Numbered from the stretch's first letter, positions 1 through 33,604 are shown. The stretch is 35,838 nt of DNA from an uncultured Gemmatimonadales bacterium (GCA_963851265.1 CAWKNZ010000011.1:1-35838); one strand, 5' to 3'. A program made the numbers and translations. Notes: a model not told the origin generated them from the sequence alone.

Positions 1-835
1 AGCGTTTGCGGGACGGCGATCCAACGCCGTGTGTCGATTTCGGGACGGGTTTCGAGACGATCGCCGTTCCGGTCGCCTGCCCGTTAGGCGTGATCGTCCG
101 TGCCTCACGTACGCCTGTTCAGACCACGCGGTCGCCTACGGATCGCCCGTGCGATTATAGCCACAAGCTGTCCCGCTGTCGGGCGTTACTGGATAATCGA
201 ACGTGTCGACCGAACTTGCCGCCGACGCCGGTACCGCCCCCGTGCTCCGCCCACGGTCTGAGCGTACGCGCGGTGCGGCCAGCGCGATTGGGCCGGCGCC
301 GCGGGTGGACGACGCGCAGAGTTCGGGCACTGCGCGTCTCACGCGAGACGCCCGAACTGCCCGTAGGGTCGCACCGCCCGATGATCGCGGCCGCGGTGCG
401 GCCGCCCGCGTGCCACCAGTGCGCTGCTATCGCGCTGCCCGCCTCCGAGGTGTCGTACGACGTTCGGCGACGTTGGCGGAAAGCGGCTCGCACCGGACCT
501 CGAGGTGATCGTCGTGGGGTGCGGCCGTTAGGCGACGCGCGTATGGCCCGCAAACCGGCTGGTGCCACGACGGGCCTCGTGCGCGACCCCACTGGCCGCG
601 ATTGACCCGGTCCGAGGATCCGCGGGGCGCGCGGTCGGGCGACTCCGAAGGTGGGTGGCGGCATCACACGGATCATGCCCGTGAGCGCGTCCCGCGGTGC
701 GTCGACTTGGTCCCACCGCACCGTGTCCCCACGACGACGCCAACCTCGACCGATCCCGTTATCGCCGAACCGGGCATCGCCCCGCAGTCCGGGTCGCTCG
801 TCGCGACGTCATGCGCATGCCCCGTGCACGCGCGG

Positions 836-1951
836 CTACGGCCTGACCGATCCCGCGTACGCCGCCGCGGCGATCATGTCGTCCACGGTCAGGCCCGCCA
901 CGACGGCGCGCATCGGCGCGGCCGTCGCCGACGCGCGCGTCCCCGCTTTGAAGGCGAACAGCTGGCGCAGCAGGTACGACGGCGCCCGCCCGGCGATCGC
1001 TGGAACGGCACCGACGCCGCGCAGGTCAGCCCCGTGGCAGCGCACACAGGCCGTCGGCGACGCCGCACCCACGGTGCCGACAGCGCCCCCGGTCGCAAGC
1101 ACACGGCCGCGCGCGAGACTGCCGCGCGGCACGTAGGTCACGTACGGGACGCCCGGGTCGTGGCGCTCGTGGCGCGCGATGTCGGTGGTCGCTTCCAAGA
1201 GGCGGTGACCGAGCCACACGTCGGGTAGCCCGTCGATCGCATAGAGACCCGTGAGCTGGCGCAGCGTCGGCACCGAGTCTGACTCGACAACCCGCGCGCG
1301 CGGCCGCGTGAGGCGGAGCGCCGCGAAGTAGCGCGCCGCGACGGCGACTTCCTCGGGTGTCGCGTGCGCGGCGATTGCGCGCATAGCCTCGAACGGTGGC
1401 GATACGCCCTCGAGCGCCACGCGGCGCGCACCGGAGGCCATCTCGGCCACCTGCGCCACGATGTACGCCGCTGGGAGCCCGGTGAGCGTGGCGTTCTCCG
1501 GCCGGCCGCGCCCGTCGGGAAGGTGGCAAAAGCCGCACGCGATCACCGACGGCCGGCGCCCGTGCGCGACTACCGGCGGCATCGCGGGGTGCGCGGACGG
1601 GAACCAGTCGGCCACGTCGAACGCGGCGGCGCCGAGCCGCGCGGCCGTGTACGTACGCCGGCTATCGGGCACGTGGAGGCGCTGCATGGAGTCCGCCGGC
1701 GGCGCGGGCGCCGAGGAGGGAGGCGTGGCGGGGCCGGCGGGCCGGACGGGGTAGGCCCAGCGCGGCGCTGCGAACGGCACCGCCGACGGATCGGCGCTCG
1801 CCTGCCCCGCCGCCTGCCCCCTCGCGCCGCTGGCGGCCGTCGCGATGCACGCGAGGGACACGAGACGCGTCGTCCGGCAGAGGAACCGAGTGCACTGGAT
1901 GGCGAGTCGCACCACAGCGTCGCGGGAAAGAGAGTCTTCGATCATGCGCAT
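836..1951 (-). CDS. Di-haem cytochrome c (c4/c553-like), exported
   Basis: Two CxxCH motifs (ACGFCH, ACVRCH), each followed by a c4-type segment (LTGLPAAYIVAQV, IAGRAPSYLLRQL) and a distal Met (EAMRAIA, APMRAVV). Signal-like N-terminus. Start uncertain (ATG 1951 or 1945, or later). Confidence 0.85.
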   Translation of the reverse strand: MRMIEDSLSRDAVVRLAIQCTRFLCRTTRLVSLACIATAASGARGQAAGQASADPSAVPFAAPRWAYPVRPAGPATPPSSAPAPPADSMQRLHVPDSRRTYTAARLGAAAFDVADWFPSAHPAMPPVVAHGRRPSVIACGFCHLPDGRGRPENATLTGLPAAYIVAQVAEMASGARRVALEGVSPPFEAMRAIAAHATPEEVAVAARYFAALRLTRPRARVVESDSVPTLRQLTGLYAIDGLPDVWLGHRLLEATTDIARHERHDPGVPYVTYVPRGSLARGRVLATGGAVGTVGAASPTACVRCHGADLRGVGAVPAIAGRAPSYLLRQLFAFKAGTRASATAAPMRAVVAGLTVDDMIAAAAYAGSVRP

Positions 1952-2286
1952 GCGGACGACAGCTGCCGTACCCGAGCGGACACCCGAGCGGACGCGCGGC
2001 GTGGTTCGCGTCCACGCATCTGGAACGACGGTGGCCATTCGCGCAGAACCTAGCAGCCCGCGATCGCGCACCAACGCTCAGGCGCGGGTCGCCTCGGTGT
2101 TTAGGCAAGGGAATGCTTCGCGCGTGCGCTGCCTGCGTTGCCGCTGCCTGGCAGCGACCGGCCCGGATCGCTGGTCCAGCGCGCCGCCGCGTCGACGACT
2201 TGGGATTCGTCGACGGCACGGGTACTCTGGACCGGACCGTCGGTGTGCCTGCCGATCCCGCGCCTCTCCCCCGCTCCGCCGTCCAC

Positions 2287-3798
2287 ATGCCTCGCACACC
2301 TCGTCGGTGGTGGCTCGACGCCTTCGTTGCGCGCCTCGCGGTCCGCGCCCTCGCGTTCGTCGCCCTAGCGTGCGCCGCGCTCGTGCGTCCCGTCGTCGCA
2401 CGGGGCCAGATTCCCGCGGGCGAATACGTGGCGCGCCGCGACTCGCTCGCCGCACGGCTCGACAGCGGCGTTGTGCTCGCCTTCGGCGGGCGCACGCCCG
2501 TCACCGACTTCGGCCCGTTCTATCAGCTCCCGGCCTTCCGGTACCTCACGAACTACCTCGAGCCGGATGCCGCGTTCGTCCTCGTGGCGCGCGGCGGGCA
2601 CCCGACGGCAATGCTGTTCGTCGCGCCGATCGCGCCGCGGAGTGCGATGTATTACGGCCGCCGCCCCGACTCGGCGACCGTCGCGCGCACGCTCGGGCTA
2701 CCCGCGCGCCCGCTCACCGCACTCGCCGGCGTCGTCGACTCGCTCGTCGCCACCGGATTGCCCGTCTACCAGCTCGCCGACGTCGCGGACGCCGACTTCG
2801 CGCGACAGGATTCACTCACGCGCGGCGGTGCCTTCGTCGCCGCGCTCCTCGCTCGCCATCCCGGGCTGGTCGTGCGCGATGCGCACCCCGTCGTCGACGC
2901 GCTCCGGGCGCGGAAGAGCCCCGCGGAGATCGCGCTCCTGCGCCGCGCCGCCGTGGTGTCGAGCGCGGGGCACCGCGCGGCGCTGCGCGTCGCCGACCCC
3001 CGGTTCGAGTACGCGTACCAGGCCGCGCTCGAGGGCACCTTCCTCCGCCTCGGGGGGACGCGTCCGGCCTACGGCTCGATCATCGGCGCCGGGGAACACG
3101 GGACGCAACTGCACTACATGCGCGATCAGGGCCCCGTCCGCCCCGGGGATCTGGTCGTGATGGACGCCGCCACAGAGGTCGAGGGCTACGCGGCCGACGT
3201 CACGCGGACGATCCCGGCGAGCGGCACCTACACAGCCGACCAGCGGGTGCTCTACCAGCTCGTGCGTGACGCGCAGGCCGCCGCCGAGCGGAACGCGGGC
3301 CCGGGGCGGCCGGCGGCAGTGGCGCAGGACTCGGCGACCGCGGTGCGCGCAGCGGGGCTGGCTCGGCTCGGGCTGATCGATAGCGTGAACGCGCCGATGG
3401 ACCCGCCCTGGCCGGCCGACTGCGCGCGCACCCCGCAGCCGTGCCGGCAGTCGCAACTCTGGATGATCCACGGGATCAGCCACGGGCTCGGCCTCGCAGT
3501 GCACGACCCCGCGCAGTTCTCCACCGGCGACCACACGTACCGCCCCGGGGACGCGTTCACCATTGAGCCCGGGCTCTACATCAGTCGCGCCTTCCTCGAC
3601 GCGCTCCCCGACACGCCGCGCAACCGGGCCTGGATCGCACGGGTGCGCCCGGTGGTCGACCGGTACGGGGGGACCGGGGTGCGGATCGAGGACGACTACG
3701 TGATCACCGCGGCGGGGCTGGAGCGGTTGAGCACCGCCCCGCGCGAGGTCGGCGAGATCGAGGCGGTGATGCGCCACCGCGCCCGGCCGGCGCCCTGA
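2287..3798 (+). CDS. Xaa-Pro aminopeptidase (peptidase M24B), probably secreted
   Basis: AMP_N-like 'FYQLPAFRYLTNYLEPDA', 'LRARKSPAEI', metal-ligand motifs LHY, DAATE..YAADVTRT, HGISHGLGLAVHD, TIEPGLY, GVRIEDD. Signal peptide after ATG 2287. Confidence 0.92.
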   Translation: MPRTPRRWWLDAFVARLAVRALAFVALACAALVRPVVARGQIPAGEYVARRDSLAARLDSGVVLAFGGRTPVTDFGPFYQLPAFRYLTNYLEPDAAFVLVARGGHPTAMLFVAPIAPRSAMYYGRRPDSATVARTLGLPARPLTALAGVVDSLVATGLPVYQLADVADADFARQDSLTRGGAFVAALLARHPGLVVRDAHPVVDALRARKSPAEIALLRRAAVVSSAGHRAALRVADPRFEYAYQAALEGTFLRLGGTRPAYGSIIGAGEHGTQLHYMRDQGPVRPGDLVVMDAATEVEGYAADVTRTIPASGTYTADQRVLYQLVRDAQAAAERNAGPGRPAAVAQDSATAVRAAGLARLGLIDSVNAPMDPPWPADCARTPQPCRQSQLWMIHGISHGLGLAVHDPAQFSTGDHTYRPGDAFTIEPGLYISRAFLDALPDTPRNRAWIARVRPVVDRYGGTGVRIEDDYVITAAGLERLSTAPREVGEIEAVMRHRARPAP

Positions 3799-3845
3799 GG
3801 GCGCGTCGCCGGACGGTGGAGCCCGTCGTCGTCCGGCTGCACCCC

Positions 3846-4101
<256 letters not shown>

Positions 4102-4914
4102 CACAACTCGTCGCAGAACGGAGACGCTCATGCGCCCGGCTCCTCTCGATCGGGCTGGCGGTCTCAATGATTCAGCGCACCACCGGCCCGGGCGAGAGCA
4201 TACGGGCCGGCAGTGTTAGGCGCTACCCGGCCTCGGCCAGCGCGAGGAAGCGCTCGGCCGGCGTGCGCCACCCGAGCGTCGCGCGCCGGCACGAGACCGA
4301 CCGGCTCTTCTTCAAGGAGGAGGCAGAGTCAGCTCACGTCGCGGCGCAGACCGCGCGATCGACGCCCGGCAGCGGCCACCGCTGAGCGGGCCACCGCCGA
4401 CGACCTAGAGACGTCCGCTGCGGATCGGCGCCGAGACGCCGCCGCACGCAGCGGCCCGATCGAGACGGCGCACCGTTCGGCAAGACGCTGGTACACTGTG
4501 CGATCCCGGACCCTGATTGCGGGCATCGCGCTCCTGGCGACGGCCCGAGTCTGGACCGCTTACGTCCCCGACTCCACACGGGCTCCGACGAGAGCGGGCT
4601 GGGTGAGCGCCTCCGGTTCTGTCGCGCGCTGACTCGTGCGCACTCCCGCACGCGACCCCGCCGGCGACGGGCGGTCGACCAACGTGACGCTCCCTGTCCT
4701 GCAGCCCGGGGGCGCGCGGCTGCCCGTGTGGTCGGCCCCGTCCACCAGCACCGCCGCCCGCCACTCGGCGCTCGCCTACGGAGTACGTCCGCCCTGGCGG
4801 GCGCCTTGCCTGAGCGGCAGCGCTCCCCGGGCACGCTCCGCCCCGGATCCCCGCGAGCGGCCCGTCCGTTAGGCGTCGCGGAAGCGTCACGCCTCGTGGA
4901 TCACGCCGTTGGCG

Positions 4915-5175
4915 TCAGCCGTGGGGCATCACGCCCCCGTCGACCCCGAGCCGGGCGAGGGCGCCGGCCGAGAGCCGGCGCCAGTCGGCCGGGTACGTCC
5001 ACACGCGGCGTGCGATCCTTTCGGCCAGGAAGATCAGACACCACGGGCCGCGCGCGCCGGGCACGTCCGCGCAGGCGGTTTCCACCACGCGCCACGCGAG
5101 CCCGTCCGCATCGGTGAACGTCACCGCGTCGGGCGTGTGCCAGAGCGGCGCGGCGAGCGGGTCGCGCGCGCTCAT
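4915..5175 (-). CDS. Small hypothetical protein (FTDxDGxxWRVxE...CLIF...RRVWxYPxDW type)
   Basis: Protein-like 86 aa sequence. ATG at 5175 overlaps the upstream stop (ATGA). The motif pattern resembles small proteins I recall as common in Gemmatimonadota. Confidence 0.75.
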   Translation of the reverse strand: MSARDPLAAPLWHTPDAVTFTDADGLAWRVVETACADVPGARGPWCLIFLAERIARRVWTYPADWRRLSAGALARLGVDGGVMPHG

Positions 5176-5702
5176 CGCGCCGCACCAGCCGCCAGGGTCG
5201 GTGCCGGCGGGTCGAGCGCGTCGAGGCGGCGCACCTCGCGCAGCAGCACGGCCGCGGACGCCGGCTTCGCGAGCACGCCGTCCGCCCCGGCATCCAAGGC
5301 CCACGTGCGATCCTCGGGCGTGTGGTGCCGCGTGTAGGCGAGCACGCGCAGGCGCGGCAAGCGCGTCCGATCGCCCCGGAGGGCCGCGATGACGCACCGA
5401 CCCTCGCTACACGGGATGTAGAGCTCCGAGACGACGCACCGCATCAGCGTCGCCCGCACGACGCGCAGGGCCGCGTCGCCGTCCGCGACCTGGACCACGA
5501 CGTAGGACCCGGTCTCGAGCGCGGTCCGGGTGTCGGCCGCCTCGGCCGGCACCGGCTCGATGAGCAGCAGGGGTGGCCCGGCGGTCGGTCCACGGGCGGT
5601 GGCCCGCGCCGGGGCGGACGGCACGCCCGCCCGCGGCGTGAGTGGGCGCACTACGGGTGCGCGCGCCGCGGGCGGCGGCGGTTCGAACGACGGGGCAAGC
5701 AT
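5172..5702 (-). CDS. Stand-alone atypical response-regulator receiver domain
   Basis: CheY-like pattern: LLLIEP, VADGDAAL, CVVSELYIP, VLAYT, ALDAGADGVLAKP. The canonical phospho-Asp position holds Glu. Start uncertain. Confidence 0.8.
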   Translation of the reverse strand: MLAPSFEPPPPAARAPVVRPLTPRAGVPSAPARATARGPTAGPPLLLIEPVPAEAADTRTALETGSYVVVQVADGDAALRVVRATLMRCVVSELYIPCSEGRCVIAALRGDRTRLPRLRVLAYTRHHTPEDRTWALDAGADGVLAKPASAAVLLREVRRLDALDPPAPTLAAGAAR

Positions 5703-5952
5703 GCGGCGCTCCAGGACCGAGACCGCCGCGTGGAAGGCGCGGCGGAGCGAACGGGCGCTGACGGGGCGCGGCGGGCACGACGTCGGGGGCCGACGTGAAC
5801 GGCTGATGGTCGGCGGACGAGATACCGGTGTCACCCGGTCGCGTCGCCCATCAGTAGTCTTCCGGACCCGAGAGCACGTTTGGGACCGAACCGGGATTTG
5901 CGCCACGCTGCGCGCGTCGGTGGCGCCCGCCGGTCGCGGGCGGGCGTACCGT

Positions 5953-6777
5953 TACCGCGCCCTTCGCGCGAGCGTGATCCGGCTCTGGACCGCCGAGAAC
6001 GGCAACCTGACCGGCGCCGACCTCGCCGACCTGATGCGGTTCAACGAAGCCATCGACCAGGCGCTCGCCGAGTCGGTGACCCGCTACACGCTCAACCTCG
6101 AACGCTCGAAGGAGATGTTCCTGGCCGTCCTCGGGCACGACCTCCGGACGCCGTTAGGCGCCGTCCTGATGTCCGCCCAGTTCATGCTCGACGTCGGGGA
6201 GTTGGCCGAGCCGCACCTGACGCTGACCACGCGCATCGTCCGGAGCGCGCGCCGCATGAACGCGATGGTCGGCGACCTGCTCGACTTCACGCGCAGCCGA
6301 CTCGGCTCGGGCGTGCCCGTCGTGCGCGCGGGTATGGACCTCGGGACCGTCGCGCGCCAAGCGGTCGACGAGGTCGCGGCCGCGCACCCGGGCAGCGTGC
6401 TGCAGTGCGAGGTGTCGGGCGACCTGCGGGGCGCGTGGGACGCGGCGCGGCTCAGCCAGGTGCTGACCAACCTGTTGGGCAATGCCGTCCAACACGGCGC
6501 CGTCGGCACGGCGATCCGCGTCCGGGTGGACGGCGAGACCGATGCGGTCGTGCTCCGGGTGCAGAACCGCGGGCCGGCCATCCCGCCCGCCGAACTCCCG
6601 GACCTCTTCAGTCCGCTCAAGCGGCTTCGGGCTGGCGACGCGGCGCCGAACGCGTCCGGGAACTTGGGGCTGGGCCTCTACATCGCGGAGCGGATCATGA
6701 CGGCTCACGGCGGCACCATCGGCGTGACCTCGTCCCCCGGCGCCGGCACCCAGGTCACCGCCCGCCTCCCGCGCTGA
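5953..6777 (+). pseudogene. N-terminally truncated sensor histidine kinase (RsbRD_N-like, HisKA, HATPase)
   Basis: Homology starts abruptly at 'YRALRASVIRLW'. H-box LGHDLRTPL, N-box LTNLLGNAVQHG and G-box GLGLGLYI are present. The upstream in-frame sequence is not protein-like and has no suitable start/RBS. Confidence 0.7.
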
Positions 6778-6954
6778 CGCGTCGCCGCGAGGCGGCAGAC
6801 GGGCGCGTGGGCGACGGCGAACGCCCGGTATGCCACGGCCACCGCGGGCGGGACGGCCTCGCCCGCGTGGATCACAGCGTCGACCGCGACGGCCAGGGCG
6901 TCGATTGCCTGGCGGTCCTCGGCCCGCGCGGTCGGCACGTTGTGGGCGTCGGTG

Positions 6955-7518: not shown

Positions 7519-7649
7519 GGAGGGGGCCGGGCGGAAAGGGATCGCGGGCGGCCGCGCAGCGGAGTGCGCGGTGGCGGGGCAGGCGGACGCGCACGGCCGC
7601 GCGCGTCACGTCTCGCCCCCGCTGCCAGCCGCCGCGAAGGGAGTGTGCG

Positions 7650-7682
7650 CACCGCGTGCACACCGCGTGCACACCGCGTGCA
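7650..7682. repeat. Tandem 11-bp repeat CACCGCGTGCA x3
   Basis: Three perfect copies at 7650, 7661 and 7672, intergenic. Confidence 0.95.
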
Positions 7683-10568: not shown

Positions 10569-11219
10569 CGCCCGCCGGTTCGCCCGGGCGGTCGTCGGCG
10601 GCGCGATTCTCCGCCGGGGCGTGGGATCGCGGACGCCACGCGTCGGGACCGCATCGGAAGCGCAGGGGCCCACCGAGCACGGAGGGCGGGGAGGACGGGC
10701 GCCGGCCGGTGTCGCGACACCTCCGTGGCGATCGGGCCGGTGCAACCTGGACGCCGCCGACCTGGCCGGCGCCCGGCGGGCGGACGCGTGTGGGGCTGCG
10801 TGTCCCGGACGCGGGCGCCGCGCGAGGCGGCGGAGGAACGCACGACGCCGGACGTCAGCGCGCAGCAGCAGGGTGGCGTCCGCGCGTTCGCCGCGCTCGA
10901 CGCGGCGCGTCGTGGTCCCCGACGCCGGCACCGCCTAACGGACGGACGCCGCGCTCACGGGCGCCGTGCCGGTCCCCCGGCGTACGACGGGGACCAGCAC
11001 GCGGAGCGCGAACACGCGGCGCGCCGCGACGAGCGGGATCGAGACAACGAAACCGAGTAATCCGCCGCCGGCCGCGCCCGTGCGAGTCGAACCCTTCGGC
11101 CGGCGTCGGGGGTAGGATGCAGGACGACGCGGCCGGGAGTACACCAGGCGACTGCGTAGGGCGGCACCGCCGCTCGCCGATCGGCGCTTCTGGCGACGCC
11201 CCCACCACAGGCCGCGCCC

Positions 11220-12901: not shown

Positions 12902-13195
12902 GATGACGCGCGGGCCGTTGCCGTCAGTGGGCGTAGAACGCGGCGACCGCCGAACCGACGGACAGGGGTGCGACGACGGGATGGGCGACGACAGGCATCG
13001 GACGACCTCGCGCGAAAGGCGTCGCCAGAAGCGCCGGTGAAGGTGACGGAAGTCATGCCTAACGCGGTCGCCTGGTGAACTGCCCGGCCGCGTTCGACGC
13101 GTGCCCCGCCGCAACATACGGCGACGGTCGTACGCGGTTCCACAAATCGGATCCTACCCGGCGGCGGGCCGGCACGCCGGCGCGCGCCGGAGCCG

Positions 13196-16081: not shown

Positions 16082-16196
16082 AGCGTTAGGCACGCGCGGG
16101 CCTCGACGGCGCGCCCGACGTGCGCGGGCCGTGTCCGGCGCGCCACGGCCGTGCGGCGCCCTACGGGCGGTGCGCCGCGAGCCGCGGCGCCGTCTG

Positions 16197-16772
16197 CCGC
16201 TCGCGCACGTGTACTTCCCCGAGACCGCCGTGTGCTCCATCATCGCCCGCATGGCCGACGGCGCCGGCGTCGAGGTGGGCACGATCGGCAACGAGGGCCT
16301 GGTCGGCCTCGCCGCCCTCCTCGACACCGCGGCGAGCGCGAACCAGACGCTCGCCCAGATCCCCGGCACGGCCCTCCGTATCCCGGCGGCCGGGCTCGTC
16401 GCGGCCGTCGACGCGCGGCCCGCGCTCCGGCGCTTGCTGCACCGCTACACGCAGGCATACCTGACGCAGGTGGCCCAGGGCGCGGCGTGCAACCGGCTGC
16501 ACGGGATCGAGGCGCGGTGCGCGCGCTGGCTGCTGATGACGCACGACCGGGTGGGCGGCGCGGACCGGTTCCCGCTCACGCAGGAGTTCCTCGCGATCAT
16601 GCTCGGCGTTAGGCGCTCGGGGGTGACGGTCGCGGCGGGCGCGCTGCAGGCCGCGGGGCTCATCCGCTACCACCGCGGCGGCATTCGCGTGCTCGACCGC
16701 GCAGGCCTCGAGCGCCCCGCGTGCGAGTGCTACGGGGTCGTCCGCCGCCAGTTCGATCGGCTGCTACCCTAG
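16197..16772 (+). pseudogene. N-terminally truncated Crp/Fnr-family regulator
   Basis: 'HVYFP...VEVGTIGNEGLVG...ACNRLH..EARCARWLL...LTQEFLAIMLGVRR...ACECY'. The usual 'NRLLAAL...' N-terminal ~35-40 aa are absent. Confidence 0.75.
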
Positions 16773-17490
16773 CTGGCCCGGCGTCCGCGCGGTCTATCGG
16801 ACACCGCCTAACGCGCGATTCCGCCGGCGTTCGCCTCGGATTCAGGGCTGCCGGACGGTCGACCGCGCGGAACGCCGCGGAACGCCATGGGCCGAAACTG
16901 CCCACGCGCGGTCGGCATCCGCTACCTACCCTGTCCGGTGCGACGCCGCCCGCGTACGACGCGGGCGGCCGCACCAGCGCCGCTCGGCTGGAGCTCTCAC
17001 GCCACAGAGGTGGCCTCGCATGCGCAACTTCGGCCTCACGCGGCACGACGCACCGCAAAGTCGTTCGAGCTGGTCAGACAGGGCGTACTGGACGGGCGTT
17101 CCGCACTCGGCGCCGGCGGTACGATGACGCCGATCGCGTCCTGGTCGCCGTTCAGCTGCTCGACTGCCCCGCGCGGTGCGACCGCCTGATGCTCGCATGT
17201 ACCGACGCGTTCGACCGGGCGACGGTACGCGAGCGACTCGAAGCTCAGGTCGTGCCGCCCCTCGTGTCGCTCGCTGGGACGCGACGGTTCGCGACGCTCG
17301 TCCGTTCGCAGGCTGTGACCCAACTCGGTCGGGAACGCGCCCGTCGTGACGCCGGCATCCGGGCGATCGCCGAACGACGAGGCGCCGGCAGCCCGCGGTC
17401 GCGATGTCGCGGGGCACGTGCAATAGGATCAGCGTGACCCGATCGCGCGGCGGTGGCGGCACACGCGTCGTCCCCCGCCGTCCATCCCCG

Positions 17491-19049: not shown

Positions 19050-19105
19050 CGCGGGTCCACGCCGTGGACCCCTCGAACCACGTTAGGCACTTCGGGGAGG
19101 CGTGG

Positions 19106-20205: not shown

Positions 20206-20780
20206 TCACGCGACGCCGACGCGCAGGCCGCCCGCGAGCGCGAGCCGCAGACTCTCGGTCCGCGCGTGGCGGGCGAGGCGCACTCGGCCGGCGCCTAACG
20301 CGGTGCGGACGGCGAACTCGCGCGGTCGCGCCCACGCCCGCGCGATCAGGAGCTTGCAACGTTCGCGCAGGCGATGACCTGGAACTCGCAGGACGCGAGG
20401 TCCGGCGCCGAATTCCGCGACAGTCGGATGTTGAACCCGGCTGGGGTGACGCCGACGACAGTGAGCGGTCGGCCTTCGACCGACACGGGCGCGCGGCCAC
20501 ACGCCGTAGCTGACCATGGCGACCGTGGGCAGGCTGTCCCGCTCCTCGCCGGGCGCGAAGCCGCGCCCCAGCGCCGGGCGCACGCGCCTCGACCGGCATC
20601 ACGATGCCTCCGCCGTTCGGGTACGGCAGCGGCGCGAGCAGCAGCCGGTGGACGACGCTAGAGATGGCGGTGTTCGCCCCGATCCCGAGCGCGAGGGTGA
20701 TGACGGCGAGGGCCGCGGTCGCGGGGCAGCGCGCGAACTGCCGCGCGGCGAACCGGGCGTCCTGCCGGATGCCCCGAGCG
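20206..20780 (-). pseudogene. Shattered ADOP/MacB-type ABC permease remnant
   Basis: Non-contiguous permease motifs in different frames: 'QDARFAARQF..P..AALAVITLALGIGANTAISSVV..LLL.PLPYP', 'PALGRGF...EE...VAMVSYGVW' and 'LLIARA.AR.REFAVRTALGAGR.RL.R...TES'. Confidence 0.85.
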
Positions 20781-25505: not shown

Positions 25506-26356
25506 GCGGGACGTGCACGCGACGTCGGCCCACGTGCCGGCGCCCGCGTGCCGGTCGCACCCGCGACGGCCACCGCCCCTCGACGCTTCAGGTGGTCCGG
25601 CGGGGTCGTTTTCGCGACGCGCGCCGGGACGTTTCAATCGGGTGGGCTGATTCGGTCCGGGGATGAGTAATGGGACCGGGCGCAGGCGCGACATGTGCTG
25701 TCGCGGAACTCGTTTGCTCTGAGACGCTATGCCGTTAGGCGTGTCGCAGTGGCATGTCAGAACGCGAGGGTTTCCCGGACCCGTCTTCCGTCGAGCCACG
25801 ACGGGCGGGGTCGTCGCCGTGCCAGCCTACGGGCGCCCGTGCGACCGGTCGTCCCGACGGTCGTCGGGGGCGCGCCGGTCTTGCCGGTCGCACCGGGTAC
25901 GGTCCGGCGCGCGGCGGTTCCCGCGCATCCGGGCATGTCGCGTCGACGGCACATCGACGCCGCGGTGGCCGCGGCACGCGCGGGCACTCCGCGACATCAG
26001 CTGAGTGCCGTCGCGACGGATCGTGATGCCCGGCTGCGGGGCCGCACCCGAGGCGGCGACCACGGATCGCGTCATTCCCAGCGGCAGTAGCACGGCAAGC
26101 CGTCGAGGACGCATTCGGTGAATCCAGCAGTTCGAGGGCGATGGGGATCGAGCCCGACGGGGCGACGCCAGATTACCGGCCAGACAGCGGCCGGGGGACT
26201 TGAGGCATGGATGGGTACCCGTCGCGGCGACGGTGGCCCTGGGTGGGCCCGAGCGGTCACGCACGGGATCTGAGTCGGGAGTCGGTAGCAGGAAGCACGG
26301 CTACGCAACACCTGGTTCCGCGCAGACACGCCGGCATGTCGGTGCAGCTGACGATG

Positions 26357-26372
26357 TGGCACGGCTGCTGCT
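26357..26372 (+). promoter_or_regulatory. Putative sigma54 (-24/-12) promoter
   Basis: TGGCACGGCTGCTGCT versus consensus TGGCACGNNNNTTGCW: GG-N10-GC spacing exact, one mismatch. Lies 150 bp upstream of the PEP-CTERM gene. Confidence 0.6.
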
Positions 26373-26521
26373 GCGAACCTGTGCGGGTAGCGCCCAGCCG
26401 TTCGCAGGCGCGCCCGCACCCGTGCGGCTCATGGTCGCCGGACCCGGCCGGCTGCTCGGGTGCGCGCGGCCGTGTGCTGCACCCGAGCGGTCGTGTCCCA
26501 TCCTTCAACGCGGAGGTCCCG

Positions 26522-27130: not shown

Positions 27131-27209
27131 CAGCGCGCGTCGCCGCAGTCCTGAACCGCCTCGCCCTCACCGGCAGGGCGTTCGCGCGTAGGCGGCCGCC
27201 CAGGGGTCC

Positions 27210-27253
27210 GCCACCGCTCGGGTACGACCCCGTAGGGATCGTCGAGCGGCGGC
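27210..27253 (+). terminator. Imperfect GC-rich hairpin downstream of the PEP-CTERM gene
   Basis: CCGCTCG (27214-20) pairs with CGAGCGG (27243-49), enclosing an inner ACGACCC/GGGATCGT stem. No U-tract. Confidence 0.35.
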
Positions 27254-27460
27254 CGTCATCGTCGACGGGGGCTACGGGCGCCTGCCGACCCGGTCACCCC
27301 GATGGTCGCCCTGGTCGCACCCAGCGTCGGAGCGCGGGCCGGTGTGGCGCCGCCGCCTCGCGCACCCGATGCCGAAGGGTCGGATCCTGTTGGCGAATTG
27401 GCCCGAGGTTCGCGGCGGGGGGACCCCCTGCCGCGAGGTGCCGCGTGTCGATGCGTCCGG

Positions 27461-27500
27461 GCCCGTTCCCGCCCGTTCCCGCCCGTTCCCGCCCGTCCCC
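27461..27500. repeat. Tandem 10-bp repeat GCCCGTTCCC x4
   Basis: Three perfect copies plus one with a single mismatch. Confidence 0.95.
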
Positions 27501-27604
27501 GAGTCCCCGGCCGCGGTCGCGGTCGCGCGAGCGGCGGAGCCGTGAGCGAGAGCTGCGACGCGGGCGACGGCCCGCGCCTCGTCACCCACGTCGACACCAC
27601 GTCC

Positions 27605-27718
27605 GCGACGCGCCACGAGGCGACGCGCCACGAGGCGACGCGCCACGAGGCGACGCGCCACGAGGCGACGCGCCACGAGGCGACGCGCCACGAGGCGACG
27701 CGCCACGAGGCGACGCGC
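27605..27718. repeat. VNTR: 15-bp unit GCGACGCGCCACGAG x7.6
   Basis: Seven perfect copies plus 9 bp, no spacers. Confidence 0.97.
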
Positions 27719-27941
27719 ACCGACGCGAGCCCGCAGACGGCGGCCGGCGGCCGGCGGCGGCTCCGGCGTCGGCTCCTGCCGCCTCGACGGGGCGCGCCGC
27801 CCTCGCCGTGCGTGCGACGGACTGTCGCCCCGCAACACCCCCGGACCCATCCATCGGCCGACGTGCACCACTCACCGGGTGGCGGCGGCCGTTCGCGGAC
27901 ATCCGGTAGCCGCGCCCGCCGCCCCGTCGTACTCTCACGGA

Positions 27942-30002
27942 ATGTCCCCGGCGCCGGTGCTCACCGCGCTCGTCCACCTGGCCGGCTTCGGCACGGGTGC
28001 CACGCTGTACGCGATGCTCGGCGTCATGGCGGTGCGGCGCGTGCCACGCCCCGCGCCGACCGGGCCGACGCGGCGATCAGCGCCGTCGGCGGACCAGGCC
28101 GACCCGTTACCGATCGCCACCGCCCTCCTCGGCGTTGCGTGGAACGTGGGGGCGCTCGTGCTCTACTCGCTCCGCGACCTCGCCCCCACGCCGGTGCTCC
28201 GCGCGGGGCCGTGGCTCATGACCGTTGGCGTCCTCGCGTTCGCCGCCCTCGGATTCCTGCCCGCGGTCGCGGTCCAGGCGGCGGCGCAGCCGGTCGCGCG
28301 CGCCACCCGGCGCTGGCTCGTCGGTGCGGCCTACGCGCTCAGCGGGGTCGCCGCCCTGCAGCACGGGTGGGCCGCGGTCGCGACCGGCGCCACGCCGTCC
28401 CGCGCCGCGCTGCTCACGCTCACCGTCGGCTATCTCGCGGTACTCCCGGTGCTCGCCGTCGGACTCCGCGGCCGGCCCGGGGGACGCGCGCCGTTCGTCG
28501 CCGCCGCACTCGCCGCGTTCGCGGTCGCCGCGCTGCATCTGCGACACCACACCGCCGGGGAGTCACTCGCCGCGCACGTCCTCGGCGACCACGCGTCGCT
28601 CCCGCTCGCGCTCGTGGTGCTCTACCAGGACTACCGCGTCGCGTTCGCCGACCTGTTCCTCAAGCGGGCGCTCGCGGCGCTCGCGCTCGTGGCGTCGGCC
28701 GCGGCGGCATACCTCGCCGTCGTCCTGCCGGTGGCGGTGCCGCGGCTCGCCGCCAACCCCGCCGACCCGCTCGGGACCGCGGTCCTCGCCCTGGTGTTAG
28801 GCGCCGCACTCGCGCTCGCGCCGCGCGTACGCCGCGCGGCGAGCGCGATCGTCGACCGTGTCGTCCTCCGCCGGCCCGACGCCGCCGCGGTGCGCCACGC
28901 GCTGGCCGCCAGCATCACGAGCGCCGAGAGCGCCGAGGCGGTGCTCGACGCCGTGGGGACGCACCTCGCCCCCGCGCTGCTGGCCGGCACCGTCACGTGG
29001 GATCTCCGCCCCGAGCCGCCGACCCACCCCCGGACGGGCGCGGCGGTCCGCACCGACGCGCGCGGGGGCGAGGCGACCGCCGACGTCCCGGTCACCGACG
29101 CCCCCCGGTACGTCCTGCACGTCGGCGCGCTCCCGGCCGGGCGTCGGCTGCTCTCCGACGACCTCGCCCTGCTGGAATGGGCGGCGCTGCTCGCGGCGCG
29201 CCGCATCGACCTGGTCCGCGTCGCCCACGAGCGGTACGCACGCGACGTTCGCGAGCGTGAGGCGCTGCAGCTGGCGACGGCGGCCGAGCTCCGGGCGCTC
29301 CGGGCCCAACTCAACCCGCACTTCCTGTTCAACGCGCTGACCACCATCGGCCACCTCGTGCAGACGGCGCCGAACCGCGCGCTCGCCGCGCTCTACGAGC
29401 TGACCGGGTTGCTGCGCGCCGTGCTCCGCCCGACCGCCGGCCACACGGTGCCGCTGGCCGAGGAGATCGCGGTGGTCGAGGCGTACCTCGGGATCGAACG
29501 GGCGCGCTTCGAGGAACGGCTGCAGGTCGTCGTCGACGTCGACGCCGCGGCGCGCGCGTCGGCCGTCCCGCCGCTGCTCGTACAGCCGCTCGTCGAGAAC
29601 GCGGTGCAGCACGGGATCGCGCCGCTCAAGCGGGGCGGCGAGGTACGGGTCTGGGCCCGCGTCGAATCGCACGCGACGCGTGCGCACCTTCACATCCGCG
29701 TCAGCGACACCGGGGCCGGCGTGGACACGGCGCGACTGGCCGAGGGGCGCGCTGCGGGGTTCGGCCTCGCGAGCGTGGAGCGGCGGCTGGAGCGGCTCTA
29801 CGGCGCTGCGGCGACGTTCGAGTTCGCCTCGCACACCGGCACCGGCACGACGGTCGACCTGCGCGTGCCGCTCGCCCTGCCACTCGCCGTCCCACGAACG
29901 CGGCCGACAGACCCCTCGCCCGCGGCGGCCCTGCCCTTGGCCCGCGACCGGGCGCCGGGCGACCAGACGGGGGCGCGGCGCTCGCGACGCGTCACCTCGT
30001 GA
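27942..30002 (+). CDS. LytS/YehU-type membrane sensor histidine kinase
   Basis: About 9-10 TM N-terminus. 'AELRALRAQLNPHFLFNALTTI', 'LAEEI..VEAYL.IE.ARF', 'QPLVENAVQHG', 'GFGLASVERRL'. Confidence 0.93.
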   Translation: MSPAPVLTALVHLAGFGTGATLYAMLGVMAVRRVPRPAPTGPTRRSAPSADQADPLPIATALLGVAWNVGALVLYSLRDLAPTPVLRAGPWLMTVGVLAFAALGFLPAVAVQAAAQPVARATRRWLVGAAYALSGVAALQHGWAAVATGATPSRAALLTLTVGYLAVLPVLAVGLRGRPGGRAPFVAAALAAFAVAALHLRHHTAGESLAAHVLGDHASLPLALVVLYQDYRVAFADLFLKRALAALALVASAAAAYLAVVLPVAVPRLAANPADPLGTAVLALVLGAALALAPRVRRAASAIVDRVVLRRPDAAAVRHALAASITSAESAEAVLDAVGTHLAPALLAGTVTWDLRPEPPTHPRTGAAVRTDARGGEATADVPVTDAPRYVLHVGALPAGRRLLSDDLALLEWAALLAARRIDLVRVAHERYARDVREREALQLATAAELRALRAQLNPHFLFNALTTIGHLVQTAPNRALAALYELTGLLRAVLRPTAGHTVPLAEEIAVVEAYLGIERARFEERLQVVVDVDAAARASAVPPLLVQPLVENAVQHGIAPLKRGGEVRVWARVESHATRAHLHIRVSDTGAGVDTARLAEGRAAGFGLASVERRLERLYGAAATFEFASHTGTGTTVDLRVPLALPLAVPRTRPTDPSPAAALPLARDRAPGDQTGARRSRRVTS

Positions 30003-30991
30003 CGCCCGCCACCACGGGGCCCGGATTCGACGGGGCCGACGGTCCGCGACGCGATCCCGGGACGACGCTCCGGGTCGTGGTCGCCGACGACGAACGGCCC
30101 GCGCGCTCCTTTCTGGTCGCACTGCTGCGCGGGTCGCCGGACGTCGAGGTCGTGGGGGAGGCCGCCGACGGCGCCGAGGCGGTCGCCGTGATCGAGCGTA
30201 CGCGACCGGACCTTGCGCTGCTCGACCTGCAGATGCCCGAGCTCGACGGGCTCGGCGTGGTCCGGGCGCTGGAACGCGCGCGCAAGCGGGACGGGCACCC
30301 GCGCGCCCCGGAGGTGCCCGCGGCGCTCCCGCTCATCGCCTTCGTGACCGCGTACGACGCGTACGCGGTGCGCGCGTTCGAGGTGCACGCGATCGACTAC
30401 CTCCTGAAGCCGGTCGACGGGGCGCGACTGCGGCGCACCCTCTCGCGCGCGCACGCGCAGTTGGACCGCGCCGACGTGCGTGCCGACGGCGAGGATCGGC
30501 TGCGCGCCGCGATGACCGCGCTCGCCGCGCGCGGCGCACCCGACGGACGGGCGGCTGACGGAGTGGCGAGCGACGCTGAGCGGGCGGCGTCCGAGACGAC
30601 GTCGGCGACGACGGAGGACGCCGGCGGGCGCGCGCGGGTGCGGCGGGCCGCGTCGCCGATCGACCGGATTCCGGTGCGGCGGCGCGACGACGTGCTCCTC
30701 GTCCCGGTCGCGCAGGTCCTCGCCGTCGTCGCCGACGGGGAACTCCTGCACGTGCACACCGTCGGCGGCGAGCGGCACACGATCGCGTACCGCCTCAAGG
30801 ACCTCGAGGCGCGGCTCCCCGCGGGGGCGTTCGTCCGCCTGTCGCGCGGCGCACTCGCGCGCGTCGAGGCGATCCGGGTCGTGAGCCCGATGCCGGGCGG
30901 CACGTACCTCGTCACGCTCGCTGGGGGGATGCAGATCCCCGTCAGTCGGCTGCGCTCGCGCTACGTGCGCGAACGGCTGCTGCGACTGTAG
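29999..30991 (+). CDS. LytTR-family response regulator
   Basis: REC domain (ADDE, LLDLQMP, FVTAYD.YA..AF, DYLLKP) and LytTR domain (LKDLEARL...FVRLSR...VSR). GTGA overlap with the kinase. Confidence 0.93.
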   Translation: MTPATTGPGFDGADGPRRDPGTTLRVVVADDERPARSFLVALLRGSPDVEVVGEAADGAEAVAVIERTRPDLALLDLQMPELDGLGVVRALERARKRDGHPRAPEVPAALPLIAFVTAYDAYAVRAFEVHAIDYLLKPVDGARLRRTLSRAHAQLDRADVRADGEDRLRAAMTALAARGAPDGRAADGVASDAERAASETTSATTEDAGGRARVRRAASPIDRIPVRRRDDVLLVPVAQVLAVVADGELLHVHTVGGERHTIAYRLKDLEARLPAGAFVRLSRGALARVEAIRVVSPMPGGTYLVTLAGGMQIPVSRLRSRYVRERLLRL

Positions 30992-31017
30992 CCGCCGTGT
31001 CGCGGCCGGTCCACCGG

Positions 31018-31107
31018 CCCGATCGTCGCGCGCGAGGCACCACTCGTGACCGCGCGACGACCACTCGTCGGAGGGCGTGGGAGGCTCGGGCGAGGGCGCG
31101 CGATACT
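31018..31107 (+). promoter_or_regulatory. LytTR-type direct repeats and a -10 element upstream of the TonB receptor
   Basis: CCCGATCGT (31018), ACCACTCGT (31039) and ACCACTCGT (31060): 9-bp units with 12-bp spacers. GATACT at 31102-07, no good -35. Confidence 0.7.
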
Positions 31108-31165
31108 GCAGGGCCGGCACGCGCGCGCATGCGCACCCGCCGGCGTCCTCGTCTCGTTCGCGCCC

Positions 31166-33604
31166 ATGGCCTTGCTTCCTGCTTTCGTTCCCGCACCGCC
31201 AACCGTGATACTCGCGGCGGTCTTTCCTGCGCGTGGTCGCGCACCCACCGCAGCCTTACGCGCGGCCGCGGCCGACGTCGTCGGCACGGTGCGCGACAGC
31301 GCGTCAGGCCGTCCGCTCGAAGCCGTGGAGGTGAGCGCGCGACGCGGCGGGCAGGTGGTCGCGAACGCGCAGACGGACGCGTTCGGCCGCTACACGCTGC
31401 ACAACCTGCCCGTGGGGCGGTATGTCGTGACGGCCCGCTTCATCGGCTTCCGCGCGGAGGAGCGCACGGTCGACGTCGGGGCCGCCGGGACCGCGACCCG
31501 CGGCGTCGACTTCGCCCTTACAACGGTCGCGACTGCGCTGTCCGGGGTCAACGTGACCGCGAGCGCGCCCGTGGCCGTCGACACGCGCACCGGCAATCAG
31601 ACCTTCCAGCAGAACGAGTATCGCGGCGCGCCGACCAACACGACGTCGCAGATCCTGCAGCAGACCATCGCCGGCGCGGCGCGCGCGCCGACGGGCGAGG
31701 TGCACATCCGCGGGCAGCACGCCGAGTACACCTACGTCATCGACGGCGTCCCGGTCCCGGCCGGCATCTCGGGCTCGCTCAACGAGCTGTTCGACCCGCA
31801 GGTGGTCAACCAGATCGACTTCATCACGGGCGGGTGGGACGCGGAGTACGGCAACAAGAACGCGGCGATCGTCGACGTGAAGACGCGGATCCCCGCGGGC
31901 GGCTTCCACGCCAACCTGGGGACGTACGCCGGCGCGTTCGACGGGGCGTCGACGGCGGGGAACCGCGGGCTCAACGGGCAGTCGGTGAGCGCGAGCACGA
32001 ACGCCGGCCGGTGGGGGTTCTTCGTCGCGGGGAGCCGGCAGTTCAGCGACATGCGGCGCGAGCCGCTCGTCTTCGACACGGCGGGCAACAGGTCGCTCAA
32101 CTTCCACAACGACGGGCGCGACCTGTTCGGCTTCGGCAAGGTGCAGTACACGGCCGGGCCTAACGACGTCGTCAACCTCGACGCCAACCTGTCGACGACG
32201 AACTTCGCGGTGCCCTACGACTCGACGGGCAACGTGTTCAGCAACGACCGGCAGCGGGACCGCAACGCGTTCGTCAACCTGAGCTGGCGGCACCAGTTCG
32301 GCCCGGCGGGCAGTGCGGCGCCCGCGTCCGCGACCTCGACCAGTTCGGCCTCCACGTCGACGTCGGTCGCGGGCGCGCCGGCCGACTTCTTCGGCGCGGT
32401 CTACTACCGCCACGGCTCGCTCAACTACGTCCCGGACCCGCGCGACCAGGCGCAGTTCGTGTTCGCGCCCGACACGGTGCCGTACAACCTGGCGGAACGA
32501 CGCAACTTCGACGCGTATGGGCTCGTCGCCGCCTACACCGTGCACCCGCGGCGCGAGTTGGAGGTCAAGATCGGCACGCAGTCGTCGATCACCCGCGGGC
32601 ACGAGGATTTCAGCTCGCTCGACAACGCGGGGAATAGCGGCCCCGGGTCCAACTCCGCGCTCCACGGATCCGACGTGGGCGTGTATGCGCAGACGGCGTA
32701 CGCCCCCGTCGAGTGGTTCGAACTCCGGACGGGGGTACGCTACGACGCCCACCGCGCCCCGTTCGCCGGCACGCAGCACCAGGTGAGCCCGCGCGTCCGA
32801 CTCAATTTTTTCCCGACCGCGTCGACGACGCTCTACGCCTACTACGGGCGCCTCTTCGTCCCGACCAACGTCGAGGACCTGCGCGCGATCACCAGCTCGG
32901 CGTTAGGCGACTCCGTCACGCCGAACCCGACGCTGCCGGAGCGGGACGCGTTCTACGAACTCGGCGCCGTGCAGCGGCTTCCGTTCCTGGGGGCGTCGAT
33001 CAAGCTCGCCGGCTACCGGAAGAACTCGTCGCCCGGGATCGACGACAATACGGTGCCCGGGTCGGCGATCACGACCTCCGTCAACATCGCGCAGGTGCGC
33101 GTCACGGGGATCGAGAGCGTCGTCGAGCTCCGCCCCGCCGGGCCGTTCTCCGGCTACCTCAACGCGGCACTCAACCACGCGTACGGGCTCGGGCCGGTCA
33201 CGGGCGGGTTCTTTCCCGTGGTGCCGCCGACCGGGTACTTCGACCTCGACCACGACCAGCGGCTCTCGCTCGTCGCGAGCGGGTTCTACAGCCGGCACAA
33301 CTTCTACCTGAGCGCCACGGGCATCTACGGCAGCGGGCTGACCAACGGCGTCTCCCCCGCGGACTGCAGCTGTCGGTACGGAACGGGGCTGTTCGACTTC
33401 AACTCGGGGATCAAGGTGAAGCCGAGCGCGATCGTCAACGTCGGCACCGGCTACACGTTCGTCGCGCGCGGGGCCGTCCTGCGGCCGGAGCTCTACGTCG
33501 AGAACCTGTTCGACACGACGTACCTGCTCAAGGGCGCGTTCTTCAGCGGGACGTCAGTCGGGCGGCCGCGGAGTGTGCAGGTGCGGCTGAACGTCGGGAT
33601 CTGA
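31166..33604 (+). CDS. TonB-dependent outer-membrane receptor with N-terminal carboxypeptidase-regulatory-like domain
   Basis: 'GTVRDSASGRPL...TDAFGRYTL.NLPVGRY', plug 'VHIRG...YVIDGVPV...ITGGWDAEYG', barrel 'GVRYD', 'SPRV', C-terminal 'ENLFD..Y...GRPRSVQVRLNVGI'. Start uncertain. Confidence 0.92.
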   Translation: MALLPAFVPAPPTVILAAVFPARGRAPTAALRAAAADVVGTVRDSASGRPLEAVEVSARRGGQVVANAQTDAFGRYTLHNLPVGRYVVTARFIGFRAEERTVDVGAAGTATRGVDFALTTVATALSGVNVTASAPVAVDTRTGNQTFQQNEYRGAPTNTTSQILQQTIAGAARAPTGEVHIRGQHAEYTYVIDGVPVPAGISGSLNELFDPQVVNQIDFITGGWDAEYGNKNAAIVDVKTRIPAGGFHANLGTYAGAFDGASTAGNRGLNGQSVSASTNAGRWGFFVAGSRQFSDMRREPLVFDTAGNRSLNFHNDGRDLFGFGKVQYTAGPNDVVNLDANLSTTNFAVPYDSTGNVFSNDRQRDRNAFVNLSWRHQFGPAGSAAPASATSTSSASTSTSVAGAPADFFGAVYYRHGSLNYVPDPRDQAQFVFAPDTVPYNLAERRNFDAYGLVAAYTVHPRRELEVKIGTQSSITRGHEDFSSLDNAGNSGPGSNSALHGSDVGVYAQTAYAPVEWFELRTGVRYDAHRAPFAGTQHQVSPRVRLNFFPTASTTLYAYYGRLFVPTNVEDLRAITSSALGDSVTPNPTLPERDAFYELGAVQRLPFLGASIKLAGYRKNSSPGIDDNTVPGSAITTSVNIAQVRVTGIESVVELRPAGPFSGYLNAALNHAYGLGPVTGGFFPVVPPTGYFDLDHDQRLSLVASGFYSRHNFYLSATGIYGSGLTNGVSPADCSCRYGTGLFDFNSGIKVKPSAIVNVGTGYTFVARGAVLRPELYVENLFDTTYLLKGAFFSGTSVGRPRSVQVRLNVGI

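Follow-up and report, generated by a model that had tools for sequence, protein, structure and literature searches.

To our knowledge, hyper-abundant genomic words are known from few groups of organisms, namely Neisseriaceae, Pasteurellaceae and cyanobacteria, and in these groups such words indicate that DNA exchange includes a sequence-specific step. The DNA uptake sequence (DUS) of Neisseriaceae is read by the minor pilin ComP. For the uptake signal sequence (USS) of Pasteurellaceae, ComN has been proposed as the reader (bioRxiv 10.1101/2025.06.16.659825). The cyanobacterial octamer HIP1 (highly iterated palindrome 1, GCGATCGC) is reported at 15- to 300-fold abundance and was earlier argued to play a role in chromosome structure (PMC5861425), and it has now been linked to natural transformation and to type IV pilus and competence genes (PMC13756078; bioRxiv 10.1101/2024.09.10.611283). 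Here, we describe a hyper-abundant word, the heptamer GTTAGGC and its octamer extension CGTTAGGC, in the genome of an uncultured Gemmatimonadales bacterium (GCA_963851265.1, referred to below as G000), the assembly of which comprises 12 contigs and 4.6 Mb at 73% G+C. The word was first noticed in contig C11 (CAWKNZ010000011.1:1-35838), the whole of which, 35,838 nucleotides, is referred to as the window. A literature search, with most subscription journals outside its coverage, found no publication on such a word in this phylum.

An exact search of the window identified 17 copies of GTTAGGC or GCCTAAC, 11 on the plus and six on the minus strand, between positions 83 and 32908. Fourteen of these copies extend to CGTTAGGC, and the remaining three are preceded by T, T and G. 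Both counts, as well as the individual coordinates, agree with those given in the initial annotation of this DNA. In 100 dinucleotide-preserving shuffles of the window, 1.35 heptamers (largest count, 5) and 0.56 octamers were expected, and none of the shuffles reached the observed number of either. The G+C content across the window is 0.71–0.77. Beyond C or T before the word and G or A after it, the copies have no common flank, so that they do not represent fragments of one mobile element, a possibility that the annotation had raised.

Across the G000 genome, we counted 1762 heptamers (885 on the plus and 877 on the minus strand) and 1396 octamers (708 and 688, respectively), the heptamer density corresponding to approximately one copy per 5.2 kb per strand. 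Relative to a first-order Markov model of the whole genome, the octamer is enriched 16.9-fold (1396 copies versus 82.5 expected) and the heptamer 11-fold. When octamers with at least 150 copies were ranked by the ratio of observed to expected counts, this word and its overlapping extensions occupied the top positions. The sequences TGTTAGGC, GTTAGGCA and GTTAGGCG are enriched 12.9-, 20.6- and 11.6-fold in G000, respectively; the word is therefore best written as YGTTAGGCR.

Genes were called with an ad hoc codon-likelihood caller, with no curated annotation, which gave 3721 genes and a coding share of 88.6%. Within these genes the heptamer occurs 1287 times, versus 71.6 ± 8.2 (largest, 88) in 20 within-gene synonymous-codon shuffles, an 18-fold excess, and the octamer occurs 1031 times versus 39.9. 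This shuffle retains each protein and the codon usage of each gene, including the inflated TTA and CCT counts. The enrichment that had been proposed from the window is thus present genome-wide, over the Markov expectation and over the codon shuffle alike.

The flanks of all G000 copies show one dominant three-base phase. Among the 1762 copies, 989 are read as xxG TTA GGC, 201 as antisense CCT AAC, 72 as antisense CTA ACG and 23 as GTT AGG; a further 16 are in the frame that gives a stop and represent errors of the caller, 175 lie across gene edges and 286 lie outside genes. Of the 1294 in-frame TTA codons of G000, 998 (77%) are followed by GGC. We defined occupancy as the share of peptide sites able to carry the octamer synonymously that actually hold it. 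Occupancy is 16.4% (777/4733) at [APST]-L-G sites in the sense orientation and 21.3% (171/803) at x-P-N-[GAVDE] sites in the antisense orientation, falling to 3.2% (61/1895) at antisense [CRSG]-L-T sites and 0.7% (22/3091) at sense x-V-R-[LPHQR] sites. The overall excess of sense copies arises because Leu-Gly is common, and does not reflect a strand preference. Occupancy rises with the codon typicality of the gene, from 9.2% in the atypical quartile to 23.5% in the most typical one, and is nearly flat along gene length. A tRNA-Leu(UAA) was found in G000.

Outside the gene calls, GTTAGGC is the top heptamer, with 286 copies versus 26.6 expected (10.7-fold). The word also supplies stop codons, namely 123 of 437 TAA stops (as GCC TAA C) and 82 of 743 TAG stops (as GT TAG GC), which together make 205, or 5.5% of stop codons. 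A further feature of its placement is that 210 copies are found within 50 nt past stop codons, in both orientations. In spacers between co-oriented genes, 83 copies have the orientation of the genes and 76 the opposite one. These data show that the word is a DNA-level signal, is strand-symmetric and overrides codon usage. Accordingly, three points made in the initial annotation are borne out: the signal is at the level of DNA, given that sense and antisense occupancy are alike and the spacers are enriched; it is non-palindromic, the reverse complement of GTTAGGC being GCCTAAC; and its strand polarisation is weak, as seen in the co-oriented spacers.

The distribution of the word was determined in 30 relatives of G000 and in a draw of 300 genomes from the phylum, in which a minimum of 300 copies and of twice the control was required for a genome to be called enriched. 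The tallies of relatives include the unpublished genomes G011, G078, G117 and G198, and no statement rests on these. All four congeners among the 30 relatives are enriched, with 727–2415 octamers versus 63–142 for the reversed-word control, as are five further genomes of other genera (6360, 605, 516, 460 and 345 octamers); in most of the other relatives the octamer is below control. In the phylum draw, the family of the window has 9 enriched genomes out of 70, a second family has 2 out of 125, a third has none out of 3 and nine further families have none out of 102. The two enriched genomes of the second family belong to one genus, and a third genome there stands at 1.7-fold. One single genus includes genomes with 3896, 4141 and 66 copies. 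Enrichment is therefore patchy, even within one genus, and limited to parts of one order, consistent with the lineage-specific motif that the annotation had suggested. The G+C content of sampled stretches of enriched genomes is 0.59 and 0.64 in two genera and 0.72–0.75 in others.

The fate of individual copies was followed in 400 kb of the congener G001, of which 269 kb aligns to G000, mostly at 75–85% identity. In the aligned regions, 52 of 118 copies of G000 (44%) are conserved, and the same 52 represent 33% of the 159 copies of G001. Where a copy is replaced, the main replacements are GTTGGGC (9 and 14 cases) and GCTCGGC (9 and 16 cases), corresponding to the synonymous Leu codons TTG and CTC. 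For comparison, the major-codon version GCTCGGC is itself conserved at 149 of 472 sites (32%) and 149 of 446 sites, and GTTGGGC at 27 of 102 and 27 of 105; for six A+T-containing control heptamers taken together, the figures are 3 of 52 and 3 of 36. Conservation of the word thus equals or exceeds that of its major-codon version, exceeds that of GTTGGGC and is far above that of the A+T-containing controls. This comparison, an analysis of synonymous sites of the type that the annotation had put forward, shows that the word is actively maintained while individual copies turn over by synonymous change. The one-step variant CGTTGGGC numbers 1485 and 1496 in two strongly enriched genomes, in which the controls number 245 and 256. 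Their unenriched congener G288, in which the word has left no ghost, shows no excess of the variant (233 versus a control of 254), and it is mildly raised in two other unenriched genomes (355 versus 229 and 378 versus 220).

The gaps between copies in G000 have an exponential-like median, yet close pairs are too few. When the 948 occupied sites were re-dealt among the 5536 sense and antisense opportunities in 1000 permutations, 23.4, 44.9 (sd 6.4), 104.8 and 189.1 pairs were expected closer than 100, 200, 500 and 1000 bp, respectively, versus the 2, 4, 49 and 158 observed. None of the 1000 permutations was as low as the observed value at the three shorter distances, and three were at the longest. 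At long range, the copies are spaced no more regularly than at random (coefficient of variation 1.09 versus 1.00). Avoidance at short range is in keeping with diminishing returns when one fragment gains a second copy, and it argues against pure mutation bias. Along the two largest contigs, cumulative curves showed that the strand of the word tracks gene orientation. The GC skew is weak, and its cumulative curve peaks near 1.35 Mb of C2. Sense occupancy is 0.18 in the locally major gene orientation and 0.126 in the minor one (22/174), and antisense occupancy is 0.14 and 0.087 (2/23), respectively. A reversal of the leading-strand type is absent, although the minor classes are small and the replichores rough, so that a weak bias may exist. 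The skew relative to origin and terminus, which the annotation had singled out for study, thus follows gene orientation, with no replication polarity detected.

These facts ask for a sequence-specific reader of double-stranded DNA and for a strong force at each site, the latter because a sixth to a fifth of eligible sites are held in a rare codon. Selection for a collective function is weak per site, whereas a transmission bias works on each copy. By analogy with the systems introduced above, we tentatively interpret YGTTAGGCR as a double-stranded word of the DUS, USS or HIP1 type that has a putative protein reader and may be kept by biased DNA exchange. According to this model, which is the way in which DUS and USS work and in which HIP1 is now proposed to work, word-bearing DNA of kin would be taken in or incorporated preferentially, and this transmission bias may act at the step of DNA uptake. 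Point mutations that create the word would then be favoured where the protein allows, that is, at synonymous Leu-Gly and Pro-Asn sites, at stops and in 3' spacers, whereas G+C-ward mutation pressure would erode copies, mainly by changing TTA to TTG. The copies fill the least costly places (stops, past-stop spacers and typical genes), much as uptake sequences have been reported to occupy the least costly positions (PMC2817400).

The resemblance to DUS and USS extends to several properties: the word is short and non-palindromic, has hundreds to thousands of copies equally on both strands, lies in the cheapest in-gene frames, in spacers and at gene ends, is kept across species and occurs together with an import machinery. 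It differs in belonging to another phylum, in its sharp specificity, and in its identity with the canonical integron core site (consensus GTTRRRY), with GCCTAAC as the inverse core. With HIP1 the word shares that it is a hyper-abundant octamer which overrides codon usage, is conserved between genomes and is lost in some lineages. However, HIP1 is palindromic and has two cognate methylases, whereas GTTAGGC is non-palindromic and no such methylase was found among the families searched; also, the PilA-like pilin and the competence genes compared here do not track GTTAGGC enrichment. Among the analogues listed in the initial annotation, the uptake-type or HIP1-type word fits best, whereas Chi and a methylase-linked origin lose support on the grounds given below.

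To identify candidate readers, we compared 21 enriched genomes, or 22 when G000 is counted, with 20 genomes that are unenriched or marginal. The import machinery of G000 comprises ComEC, a ComEA-like protein, DprA and nine prepilins. Transformation genes are near-universal in the comparison, and conjugation is nearly absent: ComEC was found in 42/42 genomes, DprA in 40/42, the ComEA-like HHH_3 domain in 41/42, homologues of a PilA-like pilin, one of the nine G000 prepilins, in 40/41 and in both classes, and the conjugation ATPase VirB4 in 2/42. At these frequencies, the competence genes were rejected as discriminators. RecC is present in 5/42 genomes, belonging to both classes, and is not found in G000. 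G000 does have an AddA-like gene, and its AddB-like gene (C3:247993-251686) is split into open reading frames (ORFs) of 579 and 649 amino acids. Using the G000 protein as query, the N-terminal part of AddB was found in 7/41 genomes and was not found in the enriched congeners G001 and G004 or in G012, G299, G235 and G292.

Among DNA methylases, G000 encodes an Eco57I/MmeI-type enzyme of 1141 amino acids that adjoins an SNF2 helicase and has orthologues of approximately 50% identity in 40/41 genomes of both classes. Two PF02384 methylase genes (C7:771474-772495 and C9:923-1858) are in four or five consecutive pieces in different frames; these broken type-I-like N6 methylase genes are either pseudogenes or the result of assembly indel errors. 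Methylases of the PF01555 and PF00145 families were not found in G000. Overall, no cognate methylase was identified among the PF01555, PF00145 and PF02384/Eco57I-type families, other methylase families lying outside the search. Matches to HK97 capsid and Terminase_6N were likewise absent from G000, with other terminase and capsid families outside the search.

Several observations weigh against an exchange-biased word. Its specificity is sharp: among the 24 one-mismatch neighbours of the octamer, TGTTAGGC stands out at 12.9-fold, AGTTAGGC and CGTTGGGC are weakly raised (3.0- and 2.5-fold), two more are at 1.7-fold, and none of the others exceeds expectation. One species holds 66 copies and its congeners 3896 and 4141, whereas DUS and USS are described as family-wide with dialects (PMC3630211); the word described here is switched on or off among genera and even within a genus. 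An alternative word was absent from 100-kb samples of four unenriched genomes, which contain codon-type words only (GGTGGTG, GAAGAAG and GCTGGTGG) and 0–1 copies of the motif, compared with a 100-kb control sample of G000 in which GTTAGGCG is visible at 9.5-fold; therefore, no dialects were seen. None of the tested candidates (integrase, RecC, AddB, methylase, PilA-like pilin, ComEC, ComEA-like protein, DprA and VirB4) tracks the word, and the import machinery is present equally in relatives that lack it and is thus silent on the patchiness. The identity with the integron core is also left without explanation, unless uptake specificity evolved towards cassettes. Finally, the model does not predict the longest copy-free stretch of G000, 45 kb at C1:182876-227962. 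This stretch has normal G+C and divergence, is 91% coding and holds mnmG, parA, parB and mnmE among ordinary genes, and its 71 opportunities carry 0 copies versus 17.3 expected at the genome rate. It is syntenic and 74–83% identical in two congeners, in which the orthologous stretches are thin (3 copies in approximately 27 kb and 6 in approximately 22 kb). A gap around parAB as a general rule was rejected, because copies occur within 2 kb of parB in the enriched genera represented by G299, G235 and G012.

This copy-free stretch is among the features that speak for another reading, in which the word is bound by a chromosomal protein whose function is structural or housekeeping (nucleoid organisation, loading or roadblock control) and selection on density keeps it abundant. 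A core of 7 bp that is sharply specific and has Y and R as symmetric flanks is typical of a protein site, the copies repel each other below approximately 500 bp and are maintained better than matched words, and the spacing of HIP1 has been argued in the same way (PMC5861425). We nevertheless consider this explanation unlikely, since selection at each site would be far too weak to keep a rare codon at 16–21% of sites, three other enriched genera lack the parAB gap, spacing over long distances is not over-even and close relatives live without the word. The patchy distribution is reminiscent of mobile modification systems, and could alternatively reflect a bias of repair or mutation that is sequence-specific, is linked to a DNA modification enzyme in the manner of very-short-patch repair and converts near-words into the word. 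The TTG-form neighbour is indeed linked to the word by frequent interconversion, the 1141-amino-acid methylase is of a kind that reads non-palindromic sites, and HIPs have been related to methylases (PMC4390886). The orthologues of this methylase, however, are equally at hand in enriched and unenriched genomes and of similar identity in both, the PF01555 and PF00145 families are missing from G000 and its two PF02384 genes are broken. A pure mutation bias also predicts neither the avoidance within 500 bp nor the higher occupancy in the most codon-typical genes, which makes this origin improbable.

Chi is likewise an over-represented word of 5–8 nt that occurs once per few kb and is often read as a mark of self DNA. 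As a signal of this type, GTTAGGC would stop a helicase-nuclease and so improve survival or recombination of DNA after a break or upon entry, and the survival of incoming DNA would then generate an uptake-like drive. The length of 7–8 nt and the density per strand resemble those of E. coli Chi, and G000 has an AddA-like gene along with the AddB-like gene pair. However, no polarity beyond gene orientation was detected in either sense or antisense occupancy, the cumulative curves follow the gene strand, GTTAGGC is built on a rare codon and Chi on common ones, RecC is missing from G000 and scattered over both classes, and the AddB-like protein is patchy, split in G000 and not found in two enriched congeners. 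A Chi-like role is thus very unlikely. The core-site identity points in turn to the integron integrase, which binds the GTTAGGC R box in attC and attI and might as a reader drive or select the genome-wide copies. In unenriched relatives, the octamer is found mainly in clusters on single contigs, on one strand and approximately 550 bp apart, where a conserved repeat of approximately 30 nt carries it at its 3' end; these clusters are cassette arrays, with the octamer at the cassette junctions. Integrase genes are common in the order, with matches to the integron-integrase model over the cut-off in 18/31 and 29/42 genomes, enriched and unenriched alike. The integrase is, however, neither necessary nor sufficient for enrichment. 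Many genomes with a full-length integrase and cassette arrays are unenriched (G005, G006, G019, G029, G288 and others), and no match over the cut-off was found in the enriched G008, G018 and G124. In G000 an insertion of approximately 2.1 kb splits the integrase gene (C6:3005-6044) into parts corresponding to model positions 2–265 and 260–313; this insertion codes for a large serine recombinase with Resolvase, Recombinase and Zn_ribbon_recom domains. In G012 the gene is in three frames. Moreover, the copies of the word arise by point substitution, without indels or flanks. The integrase as sole cause is thus largely refuted, and that it reads and drives the genome-wide copies is the most improbable of the explanations considered.

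The architecture of the copies also differs from that of attC and attI sites, despite the same seven letters. More than 99% of the G000 copies are solitary, with no inverse core, conserved flank or hairpin. Only eight adjacent, attC-like GCCTAAC..GTTAGGC pairs at 41–160 bp were identified in G000, their members lying 66–149 bp apart, and four of the eight are in a probable array at C10:188-204 kb. GCCTAAC is located 45–150 nt upstream of 18 of the 1762 copies, and RYYYAAC upstream of 114 versus downstream of 72. The pair formed by the window copies at 4066 and 4215 folds no better than shuffles (z of -0.9), by which an attC reading of this pair was ruled out, and an Rfam search of the window and of two array loci returned no match. 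A cassette array next to an integrase gene describes loci in relatives, but not the window or the bulk of the G000 copies. The statement of the initial annotation that the word matches the integron core, with no attC structure around it, therefore stands. The identity of the word with the core is either a striking coincidence or a clue. One possibility, which we regard as doubtful, is that some lineages of the order evolved a preference for the integron core in uptake or incorporation, the thousands of chromosomal copies being a by-product of this preference acting on the DNA of kin.

Two further loci were noted in passing. The densest stretch of G000, C10:186001-206000, holds 13 copies in 10 kb with alternating strands, four GCCTAAC..GTTAGGC pairs 90–114 bp apart, many short ORFs and transposases of the IS481 and IS110 families. 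It probably represents a cassette array that has no integrase next to it. In the window, approximately 130 bp just after the 4066/4215 pair (4154-4290) recur in G001 and G004 at 77–97% identity, and the copy at G004:C3:191195-191325 is approximately 1.2 kb from an integrase-like gene. This stretch may be a small mobile or recombination-site repeat.

Words other than GTTAGGC were also recorded. A maximal-order Markov analysis of G000 identified a second over-represented group of the form AGC..GCT (AGGCGCT, AAGCGCT, AGCGGCT and AGTCGCT) at approximately 2- to 2.7-fold. In the samples of the unenriched genomes G006, G088, G061 and G029, GGTGGTGG and GCTGGTGG are 3- to 9-fold above the dinucleotide expectation, the corresponding values in G000 being 3.6- and 1.8-fold. 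Both words are strongly one-stranded in two of the samples (24:3 and 40:6), and their enrichment is probably codon-driven.

Among the copies in the window, four CGTTAGGC or TGTTAGGC copies on the plus strand and one on the minus strand fall within genes with an assigned family. These include CCG TTA GGC (Pro-Leu-Gly; CGTTAGGC, 6153..6159, +) in the histidine-kinase gene 5920-6777(+), GTG TTA GGC (Val-Leu-Gly; TGTTAGGC, 28796..28802, +) in the histidine-kinase gene 27942-30002(+), and GCG TTA GGC (Ala-Leu-Gly; CGTTAGGC, 32902..32908, +) in the TonB-dependent receptor gene 31205-33604(+). The same receptor gene carries an antisense CGTTAGGC copy (32158..32164, -), where the gene reads xxG CCT AAC G (Pro-Asn), and the Crp-family gene 16170-16772(+) carries CGTTAGGC (16608..16614, +) as GTT AGG C (Val-Arg), the least used frame in the genome. 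The codons that the annotation had assigned to these copies, TTA-Leu at 6154, 28797 and 32903, AGG-Arg within GTT-AGG at 16608-16613, and CCT-AAC at 32159-32164 opposite an antisense-strand word, were all recovered with our own gene calls. Two further CGTTAGGC copies, 83..89 (+) and 527..533 (+), read xxG TTA GGC in the same frame of an open-ended ORF, 3-605(+), which is unconfirmed and has no Pfam match.

Several window copies are directly past stop codons. CGTTAGGC at 16085..16091 (+) begins 4 nt past the stop of the LuxR-family gene 15116-16081(+), and CGTTAGGC at 16806..16812 (-) is 34 nt past that of the Crp-family gene. CGTTAGGC at 19082..19088 (+) lies between the convergent genes 17754-19049(+), encoding an Nramp protein, and 19106-19636(-), and CGTTAGGC at 4868..4874 (+) is in a spacer approximately 40 nt past the stop of gene 4915-5175(-). 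A copy of GGTTAGGC at 4066..4072 (-) gives GCC TAA C on the plus strand and thereby forms the TAA stop (4069-4071) of the 64-codon ORF 3880-4071(+). We rejected this ORF as the tail of an IS110-type transposase, as it has no Pfam match even at an E value of 5 and BLASTP showed no similarity between it and an IS110 transposase of G000. The inverted partner of this copy, TGTTAGGC at 4215..4221 (+), is 149 bp away and outside the gene calls. CGTTAGGC at 10933..10939 (-) may provide the TAG stop of ORF 10935-11747(-), which is unconfirmed and without a family match. The remaining CGTTAGGC copies are at 13057..13063 (-), outside the gene calls and read as GTT AGG if ORF 12353-13117(-) is real from its first start; at 20293..20299 (-), outside the gene calls; and at 25734..25740 (+), in a spacer.

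Pfam matches in the window include TonB receptors with a CarboxypepD_reg domain and PEP-CTERM, a content that fits a Gram-negative, high-G+C soil lineage. Positions 1-17689 of the window are 99% identical to G001:C4:1-17669, a contig end of another species of the genus, and positions 17690-35838 have no such match. Counterparts of window genes at approximately 82% identity are located elsewhere in G000, at C5:143947-150752 and C9:193932-195214. Contig C11 thus either results from a recent transfer between species or was mis-binned; the 17.7-kb stretch of 99% identity fits recent exchange as well as a mis-binned contig.

The word distorts the codon statistics of these genomes, as seen from the 77% of TTA codons and the 5.5% of stops that it accounts for in G000, and gene finders and codon-usage analyses should take it into account. 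Its setting is a widespread soil phylum with few cultured members. Close genomes with and without the word, such as those with 66 and approximately 4000 copies within one genus, provide a natural experiment for finding its reader. Its identity with the integron core also suggests a connection, open to testing, between transformation and the capture of cassettes: if a preference for this core in uptake or incorporation did evolve in some lineages, every cassette, having two copies of the word in its attC, would be preferred cargo, and a single shared word of 7 bp would couple transformation to cassette capture.

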